From a virus (lineage: Duplodnaviria > Heunggongvirae > Uroviricota > Caudoviricetes): a stretch of 8,684 nt of DNA. Shown in pieces: positions 1 to 8,684 of this stretch. The stretch spans positions 1-8,684 of IMG/VR virus record IMGVR_UViG_2909246061_000003. One strand, 5' to 3'. Below the pieces are notes generated by a model. It saw only the letters and a list, made by a program, of their open reading frames with translations. It made no database searches and was not told the DNA's origin. The translations under genes and the position numbers were made by a program. Every line of letters starts with the position of its first letter. Within the stretch, counting starts at the first letter, position 1.

Positions 1-192
1 TCAGGAGCATTTCTGATTAACACCACCGTTAAGAATCCACCCCTCAACAGCTTCACGAAGGTATGATTTGGGGTGGGTTCTGACTGGCTTCGGAAATCCG
101 TGCCGTTTGGTATAGTTCCAGATTGTCTGACGTGATGAAACACCGAGCTTGTTCATCACTTCTTTCTCAGGAATCAGGCTGGTATCGGTCAT
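1..192 (-). CDS. Excisionase-like small DNA-binding protein (lambda Xis / AlpA-like), 63 aa
   Basis: Complete ORF on the minus strand: ATG at 192-190, TGA at 3-1. GGAG lies about 7 nt upstream of the ATG (revcomp of 201-204). The motif W-x-Y-x3-G-FPKPV-x-Y-x3-V-x-W resembles the winged-helix core of lambda Xis and AlpA-type regulators, from memory. Position at the prophage edge fits int lying further left, off-window. Confidence 0.55.
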   Translation of the reverse strand: MTDTSLIPEKEVMNKLGVSSRQTIWNYTKRHGFPKPVRTHPKSYLREAVEGWILNGGVNQKCS

Positions 193-204
193 CTTAATTC
201 TCCA

Positions 205-231
205 GGCAAAAAGAAACCGCCATCAGGCGGC
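205..231 (-). terminator. Intrinsic terminator-like hairpin between the 55-aa ORF and the excisionase-like gene
   Basis: Minus-strand reading: stem CCGCC, loop TGAT, stem GGCGG, then TTTCTTTTT (plus 217-221 pairs with 226-230; A-run at plus 208-216). The stop codon of the upstream 55-aa ORF sits in the loop. Confidence 0.45.
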
Positions 232-390
232 TTGGTGTTCTTTCAGTTCTTCAATTCGAATATTGGTTACGTCTGCATGCGCTATCTGCGCCCATATCAT
301 CCAGTGGTTATAGCAGTCGTTGATGCCCTCTGCTTCGATAACTCTGTTGAATGGTTCTCCATTCCATTCACCTGTGACTCGGAAGTGCAT
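223..390 (-). CDS. Hypothetical small protein, 55 aa (below the ORF-track length cutoff)
   Basis: Hand translation of the minus strand: ATG at 390-388, TGA at 225-223, GGAG about 7 nt upstream. Product MHFRVTGEWNGEPFNRVIEAEGINDCYNHWMIWAQIAHADVTNIRIEELKEHQAA. No family recognised. Confidence 0.3.
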   Translation of the reverse strand: MHFRVTGEWNGEPFNRVIEAEGINDCYNHWMIWAQIAHADVTNIRIEELKEHQAA

Positions 391-403
391 TTATCATCTC
401 CAT

Positions 404-427
404 AAAACAAAACTCGCCGTAGCGAGT
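404..427 (-). terminator. Intrinsic terminator-like hairpin (proximal of a tandem pair)
   Basis: Plus 412-417 ACTCGC pairs with 422-427 GCGAGT, loop CGTA. On the minus strand the hairpin is followed by TTTTGTTTT. Confidence 0.45.
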
Positions 428-440
428 TCAGATAAAAGAA

Positions 441-459
441 AACCCGCACTCGGCGGGTT
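441..459 (-). terminator. Intrinsic terminator-like hairpin (distal of a tandem pair)
   Basis: Plus 441-447 AACCCGC pairs with 453-459 GCGGGTT, loop ACTCG. On the minus strand the 7-bp GC-rich stem is followed by TTTTCTTTTAT. Confidence 0.5.
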
Positions 460-479
460 CGCATTCGTTCAAATTGCGT

Positions 480-578
480 TTACTTCTTGGCGTTCTGTTC
501 ATCCATATCGATATACCATGGGTTGCTTCCCTTGGGCATGTTTAACGACTGCTCGCGATAGTATCTGATGCGCTCCAT
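480..578 (-). CDS. Possible cIII-like micro-ORF, 32 aa (very tentative)
   Basis: Hand translation: ATG 578-576, TAA 482-480. Product MERIRYYREQSLNMPKGSNPWYIDMDEQNAKK. Loose resemblance to the ERI...LN.PG.PKNGSN stretch of lambda/P22 cIII from memory. No convincing SD. Lies in the leftward operon where cIII would be expected. Confidence 0.2.
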   Translation of the reverse strand: MERIRYYREQSLNMPKGSNPWYIDMDEQNAKK

Positions 579-738
579 GAAATACTCGCGTGAGTGCTCA
601 GGTTGCTCTCATGATACCTGCTCAGTGATAACAGGTATGTTAAGGCGCTCTCTGTACTCCATGCCTGATGCTGCAAGGTCAACGTTTACCTTGTTCTGTT
701 TTTCTTTCGATTTCTCGGCGATGTTATGCCTGACATTG

Positions 739-981
739 TCAACCCGCCTCCTTCTGAACATAACGGTTATAAATCAGTCCCTGAGGGCCATAAGGAAGCG
801 GGATGTGCAACTCCTCTGGTTCAGAAACTATCCATTCTCCGGCCATCTCCGCTGGAGAGGTAATGATAAGTTGTTTGCTAATAAAAGGACCACTCCTCTC
901 AACAACAAGCTTACCATCTTCATTAATAAAAGCTTGGATGTCAGGTGTGCTTCCACACTTGGTGATGCAGCGTTTGAACAT
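739..981 (-). CDS. Hypothetical protein, 80 aa (ORF-track frame 739..1023; internal ATG with SD preferred)
   Basis: Minus-strand ORF. The ATG at 981-979 is preceded by GGGGGA at about 6 nt; the upstream ATG at 1023 has no SD. Product begins MFKRCITKCGSTPDIQAFINEDGKLVVERSG. No family recognised. Confidence 0.4.
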   Translation of the reverse strand: MFKRCITKCGSTPDIQAFINEDGKLVVERSGPFISKQLIITSPAEMAGEWIVSEPEELHIPLPYGPQGLIYNRYVQKEAG

Positions 982-1107
982 TTTGTGTCCCCCCATTTTA
1001 TGTACGGGGTAATTATAACACATTGAAATATAGTAATATTTGACGTAGATTTCTTTTGATCTATAAGCGATTTTTTAATGCTTTTAAGTTATAAATACTT
1101 GTTTTCA

Positions 1108-1524
1108 TCACCCATCTTGCTGCGGTGCTACTATTGAAAAGTGCTCACACCCTTTAGCCCAAATAGTTTTGATAGTTGTCCAACTGACTGGAACCTTGAT
1201 TTCGATTCTCCCGCTACAGTCACAAGTTTCGCAATCATCATCACCAAAGCATTCCGGGCAGCTTATAAACGTAGTTTCTGAAAATTCACCGGATAGCACA
1301 CCCTTAGCGCCGTTCTCGGCTGTTAGTCTCTTCGGCACCATGACCCAACCATCCGGAATTACCGGAGAGTTGCCGGGTTCTTTAATGTGCAAGCGAGGCT
1401 CACCATCTTTTGGCTCAGGCCACTGGCGCTCCATGTTGATCTTCAATTTATCTTCCATAGCAGCGGTAATTTCAGCATCGCTGATGCCAGCACGGCGCTG
1501 TGCATCCCACAACAGGAAATGCAT
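1108..1524 (-). CDS. Hypothetical Cys-rich protein, 138 aa, possibly the 3' remnant of a longer gene
   Basis: Minus-strand ORF with protein-like composition, whereas the overlapping plus ORF 1169..1558 is Ser/Leu-rich and starts on TTG. C-terminal CPEC-x6-CETCDC cluster suggests metal binding. No SD before the ATG at 1524. The frame is open upstream only to a stop at 1557-1555, right at the junction where lambda-like sequence begins. Confidence 0.4.
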   Translation of the reverse strand: MHFLLWDAQRRAGISDAEITAAMEDKLKINMERQWPEPKDGEPRLHIKEPGNSPVIPDGWVMVPKRLTAENGAKGVLSGEFSETTFISCPECFGDDDCETCDCSGRIEIKVPVSWTTIKTIWAKGCEHFSIVAPQQDG

Positions 1525-1566
1525 ACAGTACGGAACTAAACGCGGAAAAGCCGCTTAAGACATTCC

Positions 1567-1598
1567 CGCTCTTACACATCCCAGCCCTGAAAAAGGGC
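1567..1598 (+). promoter_or_regulatory. nutR-like N-utilisation site: boxA CGCTCTTAC (1567-1575) and boxB GCCCTGAAAAAGGGC (1584-1598)
   Basis: Seen directly. Matches lambda nutR boxA/boxB as I recall them, with about one mismatch in the spacer. The following leader down to the cII ATG also looks lambda-like. Confidence 0.8.
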
Positions 1599-1677
1599 AT
1601 CAAATTAAACCACACCTATGGTGTATGCATTTATTTGCATACATTCAATCAATTGTTATCTAAGGAAATACTTACAT

Positions 1678-1956
1678 ATGCAACTTACAAGTACTCGCAA
1701 GAAAGCGAATGCAATTACAAGCAACATCCTGAATCGAATTGCTGTACGTGGTCAGCGAAAGGTTGCCGACGCGTTAGGGGTTAATGAATCGCAAATTTCG
1801 CGATGGAAAGACAGCTTCATCCCCAAAATGGGAATGCTTCTGGCTGTTCTTGAATGGGGTGTTGAAGACGAGGAGTTGGCGGAACTGGCTAAGCAAGTAG
1901 CCAGAATGCTGACAAAAGAAAAAGCCCCGAAGAACGGCGAATTCTTCGAGGCCTGA
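1678..1956 (+). CDS. cII: Transcriptional activator CII homologue, 92 aa
   Basis: The stretch SQISRWK...IPK..MLLAVLEWGV.D...A.LA.QVA..LT..K.P is collinear with lambda CII. ATG at 1678 is preceded by AAGGAAA. The ORF-track start at 1618 is an upstream non-ATG extension and is not used. The N-terminal 25 residues differ from lambda while the leader matches, indicating a mosaic. Confidence 0.85.
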   Translation: MQLTSTRKKANAITSNILNRIAVRGQRKVADALGVNESQISRWKDSFIPKMGMLLAVLEWGVEDEELAELAKQVARMLTKEKAPKNGEFFEA

Positions 1957-1990
1957 TGTAGAAAGACTGGATCAATCCACAGGAGTAATT

Positions 1991-2152
1991 ATGACAAAAC
2001 GTCGTAAGAAATACCAGGAAAAAGAAGAGATTCGACACCCTGATTCACCTGAGGGATTAGTGGTAGCCGCAGCAAATAACAGGGCGTTCGCAGAACGCCT
2101 TGTTGGTGTTTACAGACTAGCCAAAGCAGGAGTGAAACATGGGCGTCGTTAA
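1991..2152 (+). CDS. Small basic ORF, 53 aa, using a lambda-O-like RBS and start context
   Basis: AGGAG at 1981-1985, then ATG at 1991. Product MTKRRKKYQEKEEIRHPDSPEGLVVAAANNRAFAERLVGVYRLAKAGVKHGRR. Overlaps the O-like start by 14 nt. Could be a real small gene or a by-product of a recombination junction. Confidence 0.3.
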   Translation: MTKRRKKYQEKEEIRHPDSPEGLVVAAANNRAFAERLVGVYRLAKAGVKHGRR

Positions 2153-2936
2153 GTTAGCTGATTACAGGCCTCAACTGGAGGTCGTGGAGCATCGCGTGGC
2201 AGATACCGAAGATGGTTTCATGCGCATTGCTAACGAGATTACCGACAGTCTGCTGATGGCTGATTTAACCGTCCGGCAGTTGAAGGTGATGCTCGCTATC
2301 ATGCGCAAGACATACGGATTCAATAAGCCGATGGATCGACTCACAAACACGCAGATAGCAGCCATGACAGGTATTCATCACACTCATGTTTGCGCTGCCA
2401 AGCGCCAGCTTATCGAGCGTAAATTCCTCATTGCTGATGGCGTGAAAATCGGAGTGAACAAGGTGGTTTCTCAGTGGATTAGCCAGGACAGCTTAACATT
2501 AGCTAAAACAGCTAATAAAACATTAGCCAAGTCGGCTAATGGGTATAAGCCAAGTCAGCTAAACACAAAAGACAATATACAAAAGACAATAAATACAAAT
2601 ACCCCCTTACCCCCTAACGGGGGCGGCGATGGGCAGGTTAAACCTGAACGTCGCAAGGCAGAACGAATCGACTACGAATCCTTCCTGAACGCCTACAACA
2701 CCGAAGTCGGTGACAGACTGCCACACGCTGTTGCGGTCAACGAGAAACGCAAACGCCGCCTGAAGAAAATCATCCCGCAACTGAAAACGCCAAACGTGGA
2801 CGGTTTCAGAGCGTATGTCAGGGCGTTTGTGCATCAGGCCAAGCCGTTTTACTTCGGAGACAACGACACGGGCTGGACGGCCGATTTTGATTACCTGCTG
2901 AGGGAAGACTCGTTAACGGGAGTTCGGGAAGCGTAG
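2139..2936 (+). CDS. Replication initiator, lambda O-like N-terminal domain, 265 aa
   Basis: AGGAG at 2128-2132, ATG at 2139, in-frame stop immediately upstream. N-terminal half is collinear with lambda O (RVAD.EDG...L...L..ADLT.RQ.KV.LAI.RKTYG.NKPMDR.T..Q). C-terminal half is not recognisably lambda O. Internal iteron-like repeats are listed separately. Confidence 0.8.
   Translation: MGVVKLADYRPQLEVVEHRVADTEDGFMRIANEITDSLLMADLTVRQLKVMLAIMRKTYGFNKPMDRLTNTQIAAMTGIHHTHVCAAKRQLIERKFLIADGVKIGVNKVVSQWISQDSLTLAKTANKTLAKSANGYKPSQLNTKDNIQKTINTNTPLPPNGGGDGQVKPERRKAERIDYESFLNAYNTEVGDRLPHAVAVNEKRKRRLKKIIPQLKTPNVDGFRAYVRAFVHQAKPFYFGDNDTGWTADFDYLLREDSLTGVREA
2477..2603 (+). repeat. Origin-like array inside the O-like gene: four iteron-like repeats followed by an AT-rich tract
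   Basis: Repeats of about 21-24 bp, each with internal dyad ATTAGC...GCTAAT: 2477-2497, 2497-2520, 2521-2544, 2545-2568. Then an A/T-rich tract to about 2603 (AAAAGACAATATACAAAAGACAATAAATACAAATAC). Same architecture as ori-lambda inside O. Confidence 0.5.
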
Positions 2937-2962
2937 CTAAATTTCATTCGCCAAAAAGCCCG

Positions 2963-3541
2963 ATGATGAGCGACTCACCACGGGCTACGGCTTCTGACTC
3001 TCTTTCCGGTACTGATGTGATGGCTGCTATGGGGATGGCGCAATCACAAGCCGGATTCGGTATGGCTGCATTCTGTGGTAAGCACGAACTCAGCCAGAAC
3101 GACAAACAAAAGGCTATCAACTATCTGATGCAATTTGCACACAAGGTATCGGGGAAATACCGTGGTGTGGCAAAGATCGAAGGAAATACTAAGGCAAAGG
3201 TACTGCAAGTGCTCGCAACATTCGCTTATGCGGATTATTGCCGTAGTGCCGCGACGCCGGGGGCAAGATGCAGAGATTGCCACGGTACAGGCCGTGTGGT
3301 TGATATAGCAAAAACAGAGCAGTGGGGGAGAGTTGTTGAGAAAGAGTGCGGAAGATGCAAAGGTGTCGGCTATTCAAGGATGCCAGCAAGCGCCGCATAT
3401 CGCGCTGTAACGATGCTAATTCCAAACCTCACCCAACCCACCTGGTCACGCACTGTTAAGCCGCTGTATGACGCTCTGGTGGTGCAATGCCACAAAGAAG
3501 AGTCAATCGCAGACAACATTTTGAACGCGGTCACACGTTAG
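2963..3541 (+). CDS. Q: Late antiterminator Q, lambda-type, read from the first in-frame ATG (192 aa); native start codon apparently lost
   Basis: Product has the Zn-binding CRDCHGTG...CGRCKGVG module and is collinear with lambda Q as I recall it. The frame is open upstream to 2891 and encodes ...VAKFHSPKSP before the Met-Met at 2963, matching lambda Q residues about 6-15, but no ATG/GTG/TTG or SD is present there. Only 26 bp separate it from the O-like stop. Confidence 0.75.
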   Translation: MMSDSPRATASDSLSGTDVMAAMGMAQSQAGFGMAAFCGKHELSQNDKQKAINYLMQFAHKVSGKYRGVAKIEGNTKAKVLQVLATFAYADYCRSAATPGARCRDCHGTGRVVDIAKTEQWGRVVEKECGRCKGVGYSRMPASAAYRAVTMLIPNLTQPTWSRTVKPLYDALVVQCHKEESIADNILNAVTR

Positions 3542-3583
3542 CAGCATGATTGCCACGGATGGCAACATATTAACGGCATAATA

Positions 3584-3612
3584 TTGACTTTTTGAATAAA
3601 GTTGGGTAAATT
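3584..3612 (+). promoter_or_regulatory. pR'-like late promoter (-35 TTGACT 3584-3589, 17-bp spacer, -10 TAAATT 3607-3612) with adjacent qut-like region
   Basis: Hexamers and spacing seen directly. The surrounding sequence closely resembles the lambda pR' region from memory, up to about 3640, where similarity ends. Confidence 0.6.
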
Positions 3613-3646
3613 TGACATCAACGATGGATAAATGCACTCGTTAAAT

Positions 3647-3685
3647 AAAGCCCTGAGTTAATAGCTCTGGGCTTTTTGCGTTTTA
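3647..3685 (+). terminator. Intrinsic terminator closing a short leader transcript from the pR'-like promoter
   Basis: Stem 3650-3657 GCCCTGAG pairs with 3665-3672 CTCTGGGC (one T-T mismatch), loop TTAATA, then TTTTTGCGTTTT. Confidence 0.5.
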
Positions 3686-3958
3686 AGCACGGCCTTTCTG
3701 AAAGCACATCAAACCAAATACCAGACAGACAATACCCTCACCTTATAGGGACACTTGCTTCAACAGGAGGGACGGTTAGGACCGCCATCCTATATGGGAC
3801 GACCGCCAATAGAACCACGGCCACGGTAATAGAACTCTTCAGAGATGGCACAGTCGCTGCCGGGCATACTTTTACGCTGAGAGATATTTCTTTTGGAGAC
3901 AGCAGGGCTCTAGGGGCTGATTTTGGAGGCTCCTTCGGGAATCTGTATAAGTTCTAAT

Positions 3959-3976
3959 CGGCCGCATCAGCGGCCG
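3959..3976. terminator. All-GC hairpin just past the gtrC stop, a possible operon-end or bidirectional terminator
   Basis: CGGCCGC (3959-3965), loop ATCA, GCGGCCG (3970-3976). A U-rich tract follows on the plus side only (TATCTCTTT). On the minus strand it lies 8 nt after the gtrC stop without a clean T-run. Confidence 0.35.
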
Positions 3977-3983
3977 TATCTCT

Positions 3984-5585
3984 TTACAGATAAGCGACGA
4001 AATAGCCGTCAATTTTCTTTATTTTAAGTTTGTCGCCATAGATGGATAGGGGCTTCTTGAGCCATGTATCGTCTGTGGCGACATATATCTCATTATTCCT
4101 TAGCGTACCCTTAGCCTTAATTTCGGCTATATATCTTTTGTTATTATCTATCGCTGCTTTGTCTGCTCTAGCAAAATACCCAAAATTAAGTTTCATTTTT
4201 TCTGAAGAAGCAAATTCAGCAAATGGGAGCCAATGTCTTAAGCTGAACTCATCGTAATCAGTGGTTATGATAGTGTCCTTCCCTTTGGAGATGACTTCCC
4301 ACTCTTTACTCAACATTTGAGAGCTGTATGGCTTACCAGTATATATCTCTCGAACGGCTTTGAAAAAGTTGCTTTCATCCGCCACTGATATTAATAGAAT
4401 AGGGAGCAAGACATAAGCAGAACTTTTCGAGGTTTTTGCTAAGTATGCCAAAACAATCAACATCAAGATCATCGTCACCGGCCAGAAGAACCGACCAGAA
4501 GAGCGAAAAACGCCACCAACCTTCATGAGAAAGTCATTCATTGGAATTTCAATGAGATTAAATCCATAAAAGTTAATTCGATAAGTTATAGAAACGGCAG
4601 CCAGAACTAAACAGAAGTACAATACAGGAGATTTTATAATTCTCCTGAAATCTATGGACTTTCTTAAAGAGGAGTCTATCAGCATAAACAAAAATAGCGT
4701 GATGATGCCTAATCCTAGATAATTTATACCCTCAAAGTTAGCCTGTTGACTCCCATGACTCAAGATAAGATGTGAGTATCTCTGGTCTCCTGGGTTGAAC
4801 CAGCCGGCAAGATCCATGTTAAGGAATCCGAATCCAGGGTATGGGTCAGAGCCTTTAATAACAAAGTATCCGGTAGCATACATTGCGAGAAATATTAACA
4901 CAGAGTAACACGCGAAAAAGAATGCCGATCTTTTTAAAGATAAACGGTTTGTGTTCAGTTTGTTTAAAATGTCAAATGCAAAAATTAAATACACCATTAT
5001 CAGCAAATATGCATGAATGGTGACTGAGAGAACTAAAATAGCAGCCCATCTTTTAAAGCAAAAAGACCTATTGATATAAAGGTAAAATCCAAAAAGAATT
5101 AGCCACTGAGCGCCTAATGCAAAGTGACCACCGGCACGATTTAAGAATATTGGTGCAATGCAGAAGAAGCATGAACCTATTGCAGAGAATATCTCATCCT
5201 TTGTTAACTTACGAAGAACCAAATACGCAGAAAACGTCATAAGCACAAAGCAAAGATACATCCAAAGCCCGTGATATTGAAATCTGGCGGGGAGAAAGTC
5301 GCTAAAAGGCTTGAATATGAAGGCCATAATTGGGATTGAGTCGGTGTAAACGATAGACCCACCTACACCCATCCCATAGTTATAATTTAGGCCAAGGGGC
5401 CACTGCAACAACGGAGTATTTCGGAAGAAATTCCATCCTGACCAGCTTTGACCAGGATCACCTATCATAAGCCATCCAACTCTTTTGAAGTCCAGCACAT
5501 TCACACCAACATACATAGCAAACATTGATGTCGTGAATATAAACATAAATAAGGACGCTAAAATCCTTTTTTGTGCCTTAGTCAT
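3984..5585 (-). CDS. Serotype-specific O-antigen glucosyltransferase, GtrC-type polytopic membrane protein, 533 aa
   Basis: Third gene of a gtrA-gtrB-gtr(type) operon. The ATG at 5585 overlaps the gtrB stop by 8 nt (ATGACTAA). N-terminal two-thirds has many hydrophobic segments; C-terminal hydrophilic domain of about 130 aa. Markedly AT-rich codon usage compared with neighbours. No close relative recognised from memory. Confidence 0.7.
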
Positions 5586-6501
5586 TGTGTTTATTCCTTA
5601 AGATGTAACGAGGCCTAGCCTTGACTTCAATATATATTCTTCCGATATATTCACCAAGAACGCCAATGCCGATAAGTTGAATCCCGCCCAAGAACAGGAT
5701 TGAAACAAGGAGTGAAGGATATCCTCTCACGGCATTTCCAAATGCAATAGTATCGATGATCATCCAGGCTCCGTAGATAAATGCAAGCCCAGCGACTAGT
5801 AATCCAATATAAGTCCACATACGTAGAGGGAATGTAGAAAAGCTAGTAATCCCTTCTAGAGCTAAATTCCAAAGCTTCCAGCCATTAAACTTTGTGCAAC
5901 CAGCGACTCGCTCAGCTCTGGCGTATTCTACTACATCTGTTTTCCCGCCAACCCAAGACAAAACGCCCTTCATGAACAAGTTTCTTTCTGGCATTAGTTT
6001 GATATTTTCTACCACTTCTCGTGACATTAAACGGAAGTCACCGACGTTCTCTTCAATTTTGGGATTGCTGATTTTATTGTGTAGCTTATAGAACCACTCA
6101 GCTGATTTTCGCTTTAAACGACCGTCAGTAGACCTGTCTGTACGTTTGGCCAGAACCATATCCGCCCCAGCCTGCCACTTCTCAATTAGGTGGGGGATTA
6201 CTTCAATTGGGTCCTGCAGATCTACATCAATCGGAATGACCGCGTCGCCTGTAGCTTGGTCAAGGCCAGCAAACAAAGCCGGTTCCTTTCCGAAGTTACG
6301 CGTGAAGGAGAGAGGAACTACGAGTGGGTCAGCAATGGCAAGCGCGTTAATAATTGATTCTGTAGCGTCTTTGCTACCGTCGTTAATGAAGACTATTTCG
6401 ACTTCATGCTGCTGAAGCCCTTCAAATTCCCGCACGGTTTTATAGAAGATTGGAATTGCTTCCTCTTCATTAAACACAGGAACGACCAGAGAAATTTTCA
6501 T
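5578..6501 (-). CDS. gtrB: Bactoprenol glucosyltransferase GtrB (GT2 family), 307 aa
   Basis: Near-collinear with Shigella/Salmonella phage GtrB from memory ([23 protein letters not shown]...FINDGSKD...DVDLQDP...). ATG at 6501 overlaps the gtrA stop (ATGA). Confidence 0.9.
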
Positions 6502-6860
6502 TTCACATCCCTAAAGACAATGAACTTTGAATAAATAAACCCGCACACCAGACTGATGGCGGAGAACAGAATTAAGGTGATGATTGGTGCCAGACCAGAT
6601 TTATCCGCCGCCCAACCCACAGCTGCGCTAAGCGTCCCCATAAAGCCGACGTAAAGCATGTATCGCATGGTTGTTGTGGATGACTTAAACGTGAATCTGG
6701 CATTTGCGAAGAAGCTAAATGACACAGCCACAACGAACCCGGCAAAGTTGCCAAGGGCCTGTCCTGTATGGAATGCATAGATGCAAATTGCGAACACTAC
6801 CCAGTGAATGAGCGTGTTAATGACACCTATCGATGTGTACTTGGCGAATAACTTTAACAT
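6498..6860 (-). CDS. gtrA: Bactoprenol-linked glucose translocase (flippase) GtrA, 120 aa
   Basis: From the internal ATG at 6860 the product [23 protein letters not shown]... matches GtrA at its usual 120-aa length. The ORF-track start at 6923 is a GTG extension and is not used. Confidence 0.85.
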
Positions 6861-6936
6861 TATAGAAATCAGTGAATTCGGAAAGGTCTGAAGTGTAGCA
6901 CCACAAACGCTATTGATCGACACCGCCGATCAGTAC

Positions 6937-6950
6937 TACTGTATTAATAT
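6937..6950. promoter_or_regulatory. Left half of an interrupted LexA (SOS) box: TACTGT plus the ATTAATAT centre
   Basis: Joining 6937-6950 to 8275-8280 (removing the IS and one copy of the duplication) gives TACTGTATTAATATACAGTA, i.e. CTGT-N8-ACAG with an AT-rich centre, close to the TACTG(TA)5CAGTA consensus. Confidence 0.6.
6943..6950. repeat. Target-site duplication ATTAATAT, left copy
   Basis: Identical 8-mer directly abuts both IS termini (6943-6950 and 8267-8274). Confidence 0.75.
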
Positions 6951-8266
6951 GGGTCTTCCCTTGTTGTGGTGGCTGAAGGCATGATAATGGTGTATTTAAT
7001 CGCCAGAGGTCACCGCCATGGACGAAAAGTCCCTCTACGCTCATATTCTCAACCTGTCCGATCCGTGGCAGGTAAAGTCCCTTTCTCTCGATGAAAATGC
7101 CGGTTCTGTTACTGTCACTATTGAGATCGCTGAAAACACCCGGCTAGCCTGTCCGGCCTGCGGTAAATCCTGTTCTGTTCACGATCACCGTCATCGTAAA
7201 TGGCGCCATCTTGATACCTGCCAGTTCACCACTATTGTTGAAGCCGATGTTCCACGAATTATGTGTCCGGAGCATGGCTGTCAGACGTTGCCTGTTCCGT
7301 GGGCTGGCCCCGGAAGCCGGTATACGTTGCTGTTCGAATTGTTCGTTCTCTCATGGCTGAAAATCAGCACCGTTGATGCTGTCAGGAAGCAACTTAAGCT
7401 CAGCTGGAATGCGGTTGACGGCATTATGACCCGGGCAGTTAAGCGAGGTCTTGCCCGGATAAAAAAGCCATTATCCGCCCGTCATATGAATGTGGATGAG
7501 GTCGCCTTTAAAAAAGGACATCGTTACATAACGGTGATCTCCGATCGCGATGGTCGGGCGCTGGCCTTAACGGATGATCGCGGCACAGAGAGTCTTGCCG
7601 GCTATCTTCGCACACTCACTGATGGGCAGTTGCTGGCTATCAAAACGCTCTCAATGGACATGAACGCGGGCTATATAAGAGCAGCGCGCATCCACTTACC
7701 CAGCGCGGTTGAGAAAATCGCCTTTGACCGCTTCCATGTGGCGAAGCAACTGGGCGAGGTAGTTGATAAAACCCGTCAGAATGAACATCCGCACCTCCCT
7801 GTTGAAAGCCGACGCCAGGCAAAAGGAACCCGCTTCCTGTGGCAGTACAGTGATAAGTGGATGACTGAATCCCGGCAGGAAAAGCTGATGTGGCTGCGTG
7901 CACAGATGAAGCTGACGAGCCAGTGCTGGGCGCTGAAAGAGCTGGCAAAGGATATCTGGAACAGGCCATGGAGCGAGGAAAGGCGGAGTGACTGGCAGAG
8001 ATGGCTGGCGCTGGCGGCTAACAGTGACGTTCCCATGATGAAAAATGCTGCGAAAACGATAGGAAAAAGGCTGTACGGGATCCTGAATGCGATGCGACAC
8101 AGTGTCTCAAACGGAAATGCGGAGGCACTTAACAGCAAGATAAGGTTGCTGAGAATAAAAGCCAGGGGATACCGAAACCGGGAGCGCTTTAAACTGGGAG
8201 TGATGTTCCACTACGGTAAGCTGAATATGGAGTTCTGAGCCTTCCCACCATGATCGGGGAAGACCC
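6951..8266 (+). mobile_element. ISL3-family insertion sequence, about 1.3 kb, with imperfect terminal inverted repeats
   Basis: Left end GGGTCTTCCC...GGTGG..GAAGGC (from 6951) mirrors the reverse complement of the right end (...GCCTTCCCACC...GGGGAAGACCC ending at 8266). Contains a single transposase ORF and is flanked by an 8-bp direct repeat. Confidence 0.75.
7018..8238 (+). CDS. ISL3-family transposase, 406 aa
   Basis: ATG at 7018. N-terminal Cys/His zinc-ribbon (CPACG...C..H.H) followed by a long catalytic region, typical of ISL3-type transposases from memory. The three antisense ORFs within it are taken as artefacts. Confidence 0.85.
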   Translation: MDEKSLYAHILNLSDPWQVKSLSLDENAGSVTVTIEIAENTRLACPACGKSCSVHDHRHRKWRHLDTCQFTTIVEADVPRIMCPEHGCQTLPVPWAGPGSRYTLLFELFVLSWLKISTVDAVRKQLKLSWNAVDGIMTRAVKRGLARIKKPLSARHMNVDEVAFKKGHRYITVISDRDGRALALTDDRGTESLAGYLRTLTDGQLLAIKTLSMDMNAGYIRAARIHLPSAVEKIAFDRFHVAKQLGEVVDKTRQNEHPHLPVESRRQAKGTRFLWQYSDKWMTESRQEKLMWLRAQMKLTSQCWALKELAKDIWNRPWSEERRSDWQRWLALAANSDVPMMKNAAKTIGKRLYGILNAMRHSVSNGNAEALNSKIRLLRIKARGYRNRERFKLGVMFHYGKLNMEF

Positions 8267-8274
8267 ATTAATAT
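8267..8274. repeat. Target-site duplication ATTAATAT, right copy
   Basis: See left copy. Confidence 0.75.
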
Positions 8275-8280
8275 ACAGTA
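8267..8280. promoter_or_regulatory. Right half of the interrupted LexA box: ATTAATAT centre plus ACAGTA
   Basis: See left half. Sits about 18 nt upstream of the RBS/ATG of the UmuD'-like gene; TAATAT within it could serve as a -10. Confidence 0.6.
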
Positions 8281-8297
8281 ACTATCGGAGGTGAGTT

Positions 8298-8684
8298 ATG
8301 GGATTCCCGAGTCCGGCTCAAGACTATGTTGAAGAGCGCGTATTGCTCGACAAGCGCATCATAAGCAGACCAGCGGCCACGTATTTCATGAGAGCGGGTG
8401 CAACGCATCACCGCGAAGGCATCCTGAATGGTGCTCTTCTGGTAGTGGATGCATCGCTATCACCATGTGACGGCTCGTTGCTGGTTTGCAGAATGGAAGG
8501 TGAGCTGAGGATTAAGCGATATCGCAAATCACCAAAGCCTCACCTGGAGGATTTGCAGACGGGAAGGCGTGAGGAGATACCGGCACACGATGACGGCACG
8601 AGTCCGGATGCGATATTTGGTGTGATCACCTACATCATAAACGATGCACGCTCTGGCGAGTTTGATGATTGTCTGATTATGTGA
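8298..8684 (+). CDS. UmuD'-like protein (peptidase S24 fold, natively lacking the N-terminal arm; phage P1 HumD-like), 128 aa
   Basis: GGAGGTGA RBS, ATG at 8298, in-frame stop at 8292-8294. Product begins MGFPSPAQDY, which corresponds to the GFPSPA segment immediately after the RecA-mediated cleavage site of UmuD/MucA. The rest is collinear with UmuD/MucA from memory, including the conserved Lys (RIKRY), but the GDSM Ser motif is replaced by GATHH. TGA ends exactly at the window edge. Confidence 0.75.
   Translation: MGFPSPAQDYVEERVLLDKRIISRPAATYFMRAGATHHREGILNGALLVVDASLSPCDGSLLVCRMEGELRIKRYRKSPKPHLEDLQTGRREEIPAHDDGTSPDAIFGVITYIINDARSGEFDDCLIM

Follow-up and report, generated by a model that had tools for sequence, protein, structure and literature searches.

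A terminator-bounded copy of the lambda orf55 cassette ahead of an excisionase-like gene in a remnant prophage of Escherichia coli

What are three intrinsic terminators doing in a row on one strand of a prophage, where they bracket a reading frame of 55 codons ahead of an excision gene? The question is posed by 8,684 nucleotides of DNA from a virus of the Caudoviricetes (positions 1 to 8,684 of IMG/VR record IMGVR_UViG_2909246061_000003), the whole of which we refer to as the window. A first reading of its letters, made without database searches and called the original prediction here, had proposed this layout on the leftward (minus) strand. The features of the locus, with the hairpins labeled T1, T2 and T3 in leftward order and with stems and tails as described by a pattern scan, are these:

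1-20, plus strand: last 20 nt of int, with stop codon TAA at 18-20; convergent with the AlpA-like gene, which it overlaps by 20 bp
1-192, minus strand: AlpA-like excisionase/regulator gene of 63 aa, downstream of T3, with ATG at 190-192 and GGAG at 200-203
204-233, minus strand: predicted terminator T3, overlapping the end of orf55; stem 214-233 (8 pairs, 5 of them GC, loop of 4) and T tail 204-213 (CTTTTTGCCT)
223-390, minus strand: orf55, 55 aa, with ATG at 388-390 and TGA at 223-225; homologue of lambda lambdap35/orf55
398-401, minus strand: orf55 ribosome-binding site GGAG, 7 nt before the ATG
400-429, minus strand: predicted terminator T2, second of the tandem; stem 410-429 (8 pairs, 4 of them GC, loop of 4) and T tail 400-409 (TGTTTTATGG)
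430-460, minus strand: predicted terminator T1, the upstream-most; stem 440-460 (8 pairs, 5 of them GC, loop of 5) and T tail 430-439 (TCTTTTATCT)
480-761, minus strand: DNA polymerase III theta-like (HolE/HOT-type) pseudogene, interrupted by an internal stop; its own stop codon, at 480, precedes T1

The scan positions match those of the original prediction (441-459, 404-427 and 217-230), and the rest of the layout that it described is also present: a ribosome-binding site and then a 55-aa frame whose stop lies within the loop of the third hairpin (TGA 223-225 in loop 222-225), followed by the ribosome-binding site of the excisionase-like gene. Folding of the minus strand, a check that had been proposed along with it, gave free energies of -12.0 (T1), -11.9 (T2) and -13.0 kcal/mol (T3), with z-scores against dinucleotide shuffles of -3.3, -4.7 and -3.5, respectively. 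The stems terminate in UUU and continue on the minus strand as UCUUUUAU (T1), UGUUUUAU (T2) and CUUUUUGC (T3), so that 8 T fall within the 10-11 nt after each hairpin, and when the whole 286-nt stretch was folded (z = -2.7) all three hairpins were retained in the centroid structure. In shuffled sequence the scan reports 8.4 such sites per window, both strands counted, which corresponds to an expectation of 0.13 sites per 260 nt of one strand and to a Poisson probability of about 3e-4 for three or more. The plus-strand versions of the hairpins are weaker (-9.0 to -11.4 kcal/mol), and no T run follows on that strand at T1 and T2. Each of the three sites combines a G+C-rich stem, a short loop, a stable fold and a U run; judged from sequence, their anatomy is that of canonical, strand-specific intrinsic terminators. 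From this anatomy, the strand specificity and the retention of the hairpin positions despite replacement of the stems (described below), we infer that T1-T3 would stop unmodified polymerase.

On alignment, the arrangement of terminators and orf55 is an already known one. The window block is ~95% identical to lambda 29,100-29,350, and an alignment with lambda 29,078-29,385 and phage HK140 has a mean column identity of 91%, with everything from the T1 tail through the T3 tail nearly invariant among the three and the T1 stem different. Lambda orf55 is lambdap35 (NC_001416, 29118-29285), which lies between xis and ea8.5 and matches the window frame at 95% of DNA and 96% of protein positions. The order of elements is likewise the same: an upstream gene, two hairpins, a ribosome-binding site, the 55-aa frame, a hairpin with TGA in its loop and an excision gene. 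The stem and loop of T3 are identical in lambda and the window, T2 differs by one stem base (A/G) with pairing kept, and T1 differs in both sequence and register (AATCCTCGC/GCGGGGATT in lambda versus GAACCCGC/GCGGGTTT in the window). The neighbors differ as well: ea8.5 stands upstream in lambda and the theta-like pseudogene in the window, whereas downstream Xis is replaced by an AlpA-type protein with which int is convergent. The identity of the block with that of lambda orf55 was not recognised in the original prediction; a near-copy of a described stretch of lambda makes the finding an ordinary one.

Much of this had indeed been noted before. For lambda, Bloch et al. 2014 (PMC4195576) predicted the T1, T2 and T3 sites with ARNold and numbered them t3, t4 and t5. 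In the GenBank record of phage 434 (M60848), ORF55 is annotated together with two terminators, "t-L4" at the T1 position and "t'-I" before xis, so that the elements already have names in the lambda nomenclature. T3 of HK140 is annotated as "rho-independent terminator", and in all two of the three terminator positions are annotated in these public records. As a discovery the locus therefore carries little weight, its elements being present in lambda, named for 434, predicted in 2014 and, for the protein, modeled in 2021. The present analysis makes modest additions: roughly every second complete E. coli genome carries the cassette, which behaves as a mosaic module with terminators at its edges, and to this come the retention of hairpin positions while stems are replaced, the purifying selection on orf55 and the repetition of a stop-codon-in-loop layout in distant orf55 relatives.

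The original prediction had also asked whether the frame is conserved, and orf55 homologues are found in lambda, 434 and E. coli prophages. The dN/dS ratio is 0.13 against lambda and 0.08-0.10 against a Klebsiella type, and the GGAG ahead of the start codon is conserved in all cassette copies. These patterns of substitution indicate that orf55 is a real protein-coding gene under purifying selection. Its product belongs to PHROG 676, of unknown function, and is acidic and hydrophilic (net charge -5, GRAVY -0.51, longest hydrophobic run of 5 residues), with a confident AlphaFold2 model (pLDDT 89.8) of beta-beta-alpha-beta topology. No Pfam family matched it and a sequence profile search of the PDB found no relative. 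A word-indexed search returned 97 clusters, nearly all from Escherichia and many of them chimeric or truncated; many of the chimeric proteins retain only the C-terminal half. An exhaustive profile search of 1.84 billion representatives returned 54 clusters, which apart from a few weak matches to longer proteins consist of the Orf55 family and its fragments; with only 54 clusters from such a search, the family is a narrow one. Seven distant full-length relatives have the motif F.xTGxWNGExFxRVIEAED in common. On the basis of these properties and the model, Orf55 is predicted to be a small, soluble, acidic early protein of a kind typical of phages, and not a membrane toxin.

These data bear directly on the suggestion of a concealed small RNA or toxin-like peptide. 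Short frames between terminators near integration genes can be toxins, and in Salmonella phage ST160 the same T1, T2 and ribosome-binding site stand ahead of a hydrophobic 45-aa frame. Yet Orf55 itself has no membrane-like segment, its globular model is confident, its dN/dS is about 0.1, and neither a Pfam family nor, by sequence, a solved structure resembles it. With no hydrophobic helix of at least ~18 residues and no antisense promoter found, a type I toxin was rejected. For a small RNA, no sigma-70-like promoter was detected on the minus strand between 1 and 1100, and the best Rfam match, rsmX, scored 24 bits where the gathering score is 56. We regard a small RNA or toxin as very improbable, and neither half of that suggestion found support here.

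The fold of Orf55 has been discussed before in a different connection. [quoted passage not shown] T7 Gp2 and the Gram-positive epsilon/YkzG subunit are small RNA polymerase-binding proteins of beta-beta-alpha-beta fold. Although reproduced, the match was judged generic and a Gp2-like inhibitor was not retained as an explanation; a profile search of the PDB up to E 10 detected no sequence relationship to Gp2, and the published model of Orf55 docked to RNA polymerase is speculative (PMC8614690). In a CRISPRi essentiality screen orf55 could not be targeted (PMC10695390), and earlier work, cited in PMC9239242, implicated a four-gene stretch including orf55 in the arrest of host replication initiation. 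The searchable literature yielded no direct experiment on Orf55 or on T1-T3, and no experimental 3' ends or read-through data for the latter.

How could genes behind three terminators be expressed? In lambda, the leftward early operon is read by polymerase that has been modified by N at nutL and that ignores terminators. The cassette occupies the corresponding place, far down the leftward early operon and immediately ahead of the excision gene (here the AlpA-type candidate), and its order is a tandem pair (the tL4 site and a second hairpin), orf55 and a terminator before xis (the t'I position). We therefore favor, at a probability of roughly 0.75, the view that window positions 204-460 copy the cassette with which the exo-xis region of a lambdoid PL operon closes, and that its terminators would gate orf55 and xis. 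By analogy with lambda, unmodified RNA polymerase would stop at T1-T3, and only polymerase that has acquired N at nutL after loss of the repressor would pass T1 and T2 to transcribe orf55 and then T3 to transcribe xis. Both genes would in this way stay off in the lysogen, shielded from stray upstream transcription. The same logic is described for other mobile-element operons, in which internal terminators curb spurious transcription and only modified polymerase passes (PMC8955417; the Tn916 insulator, PMC11658703). Those are Gram-positive conjugative elements with other antitermination factors, whereas a lambda-type N would serve here.

The original prediction had offered two ways past the terminators, antitermination or a local promoter. 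The first agrees with what is known of the lambda PL operon. For the second, the scan of the minus strand from 1 to 1100 gave no sigma-70-like promoter, and the best candidate picked out by eye, CTGAAC-18-TTTTAT with ~7/12 matches, lies within T2 and would leave the ribosome-binding site leaderless. A reading of orf55 as a phage "moron" was rejected for the same stretch, as a promoter of its own was not found above the scan threshold. The downstream genes also need to be separated: xis and int had been treated as a single unit, yet in this prophage type int is read from the plus strand toward xis, and the two genes share 20 bp. A transcript of int would run antisense along the whole of xis before arriving at the T3 hairpin.

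In the window itself the cassette has most likely become a silent relic. What the window holds is the remains of a lambdoid E. coli prophage, matched best (99.9% identity) next to sbcB in E. coli PSS-10; the window lacks a further 3590 bp, and PSS-10 is itself missing the region between a truncated recT and cII. PL, N, nutL, cI, cro and cIII are absent from both the window and this closest relative, unlike in lambda, where PL, nutL and N serve the operon, and the opposite strand retains only nutR, tR1, cII, O and Q. Because PL, N and nutL have been deleted, the cassette is probably not expressed here. For this copy the question of gating is moot.

At least five versions of the T1 stem, those of the window, lambda, 434 (ATCCTCG/CGAGGAT), ST160 and locus L085, stand on one and the same T tail, which in all of them is ATTTCTTTTATCT or a near variant. 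The site before xis likewise occurs in two hairpin versions, since 434 has ORF114 inserted between ORF55 and xis and places before xis a different hairpin (GCCGCA/TGCGGC, its t'-I) that has the tail and xis leader in common with lambda T3; the T3 copy left behind ORF55 in 434 (L106, 536-560) has a stem mutation, GGCGG to GGAGG, and folds at -7.3 kcal/mol. In T2 all cells pair across 13 variants (100%), and the changes at its three variable positions are one-sided and wobble-compatible. A Klebsiella homologue (L103) retains the arms of T3 despite saturated synonymous sites (pS 0.72). Covariation was statistically undetectable as the copies are too similar: scores for the 13 T1-T2 variants were reached by 152-174 of 500 shuffles and that for the whole structure by 152 of 500, in an analysis whose single column structure is unable to describe T1 versions that differ in pairing register. 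In place of covariation, it is the exchange of entire stems, at T1 and ahead of xis, that supports the idea that pairing has been maintained. The upstream pair is dispensable, given that T1 is missing from ~15 and T1 and T2 together from ~7 of ~100 cassette copies.

Stems that are kept might also act after transcription, chiefly as barriers to 3' exonucleases that would set the half-lives of the orf55, upstream and xis segments once the PL transcript is processed. Stable stems do stand at both ends of the small cistron, and if the N-modified complex reads through terminators, any role of the hairpins in the lytic cycle would have to be post-transcriptional. Stability hairpins need no T runs, yet conserved T runs follow all three stems and every stem variant, and for this reason we consider improbable the proposal that RNA stability is their main business.

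The cassette is extremely common in E. coli prophages. Of 5426 complete E. coli genomes, 2569 (47%) have it, with up to four copies per genome, and it is found in 285 phage records. When species-representative genomes were examined for divergent copies, nearly all of the hits were lambda DNA in unrelated taxa (Shewanella, Bacillus, Streptomyces and others), almost certainly spike-in or control-DNA contamination that is useless for assessing diversity, and the source was set aside. The near-identical lambda sequences L004-L022 include contigs of ~48.5 kb and are labeled Shewanella, Pseudomonas, Oceanobacillus, Kitasatospora, Bradyrhizobium and others.

Among 72 distinct copies, the majority-base identity rises from ~0.45 to more than 0.9 between window positions 470 and 440 and falls from 0.99 to ~0.6 at 213-205, that is, at the T3 tail. 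The DNA flanking the cassette comes from many unrelated modules on both sides, and ungapped clustering sorted it into some ten larger classes ahead of T1 and some five behind T3, in up to ~40 combinations. By these profiles the cassette is a sharply bounded mosaic module with its edges at T1 and at the T3 tail. Among the loci examined, the T1 stem of the window type was seen only with a theta-like upstream flank (three PSS-10-like loci and the window). Isolated pieces of the cassette are present at other junctions: in P22, T3 and the last 40 nt of orf55 lie between eaG and eaC; in ST160 (L118, 1190-1392), T1, T2 and the ribosome-binding site precede a different, unannotated hydrophobic frame of 45 aa (MVLVIGATYLCRRGDIDDVVYAGIAIFGFIELLVEIALLASVLGR), which takes the place of orf55 directly upstream of xis; and in VT2phi_272, T1 and a tail-less T2 precede an antirepressor gene.

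Such a distribution raises the possibility that the conserved block is mainly a recombination linker, near-identical DNA at a module boundary where lambdoid phages would exchange integration modules against early-left accessory genes by homologous recombination, and in which the hairpins are incidental or secondary. The abrupt identity changes at both edges, the many flank combinations, the isolated pieces in P22, ST160 and VT2phi_272 and the chimeric proteins with only the C-terminal half of Orf55 are all as a linker would produce them. It would not account for three hairpin and T-run junctions on a single strand, for the retention of different stems at the same place or for the purifying selection on orf55, and the conservation of the block may be a result of exchange rather than its purpose. 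We hold the linker as a tentative alternative, the strongest of those considered and clearly less probable than a terminator-gated cassette. The two are not exclusive, a linker role being compatible with terminator function.

The position of the orf55 stop codon in the loop of T3 suggests a further possibility, in which T3 is a bidirectional gate that responds to translation. A ribosome at the loop stop would cover the 5' arm, which encodes the conserved C-terminal Ala-Ala of Orf55 (GCC GCC), such that translated transcripts would be read into xis and untranslated ones would stop, and on the opposite strand the same hairpin would end the int mRNA or the aI RNA of P22. The P22 record (BK000583) is suggestive here: the last 64 nt of the cassette (the 3' end of orf55 and T3) are 97% identical, the remainder of orf55 is missing, and the annotation places the hairpin on the other strand, where it is listed as terminating the C1-activated antisense aI RNA. 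In the window, int is convergent, T3 is the strongest hairpin past the int stop on the plus strand, and the scan marks the plus-strand hairpin at 217-230 as terminator-like.

The layout recurs beyond the E. coli type and the Klebsiella homologue L103. Six of the seven distant orf55 homologues were looked up for genomic context. All are genes of early operons: those of L110 and L114-L116 come right behind N or cI (at 2430-2680 in L110, 2140-2190 in L114 and L115 and 1950-2000 in L116, with ~40-50% identity), that of L107 is near xis and int, and that of L113 follows replication genes. Several of those behind N or cI have hairpin and T-run sites at their flanks; the homologue in L110 is bracketed by terminators, as in the window, and in both L110 and L114 the stop codon, there TAA, lies in the loop of a hairpin with a T run whose 5' arm contains the Ala codon GCC. 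This codon is present in the 5' arm in every one of these cases, doubled as GCC GCC in all except L114. Flanking terminators were absent at the homologues in L107, L113 and L117.

Working against a gate of this kind, the plus-strand T3 hairpin is weaker (-9.4 kcal/mol, z -1.9), as a G.U pair becomes an A.C mismatch on that strand, and its tail CUUGGUGUUC has only 5 U in 10; furthermore, at the ends of genes an overlap of terminator and stop codon is commonplace and calls for no special role. We therefore think it unlikely that T3 acts as a translation-sensitive gate. Slightly less likely still is the extension of this thought, in which a two-way, translation-sensitive excision gate at T3 and a swappable upstream pair would together form a portable "port" before integration modules. 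If that were true, an int mRNA ending at T3 would create an RNA antisense to xis, and different small genes would be inserted into the port, such as orf55 or the hydrophobic 45-aa frame of ST160. A lambda-type cassette whose terminators are passed by N-modified polymerase remains the reading that we prefer.

The rest of the window records the decay of the prophage. Its other genes include cII, O, Q, gtr, an ISL3 transposase and an S24 fragment. The deletion joint relative to PSS-10 lies at 1524-1528, where a truncated DUF550/dATP-dGTP pyrophosphohydrolase gene is fused to nutR. Beyond it, 1545-1956 on the plus strand carries a lambda-type nutR (boxA CGCTCTTA, boxB GCCCTGAAAAAGGGC), the tR1 region and cII, with PR absent. 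A PRE-like CII box (TTGC-N6-TTGT) with a -10 element AAGTAT lies on the minus strand near 1655-1700 and would now face the leftward genes. The strongest terminator-like site in the window, at 1922-1954 on the minus strand (14 pairs and TTTCTTTT), is antisense to the 3' end of cII; it gave no significant Rfam match and sits at the position of the lambda oop RNA terminator. Positions 3984-8684 hold a set for O-antigen modification on the minus strand (DUF6311, a family-2 glycosyltransferase and GtrA), then an ISL3-family transposase at 7018-8238 and a Peptidase S24 fragment at 8298-8684; the O-antigen genes, transposase and S24 fragment are further evidence that the prophage is a remnant.
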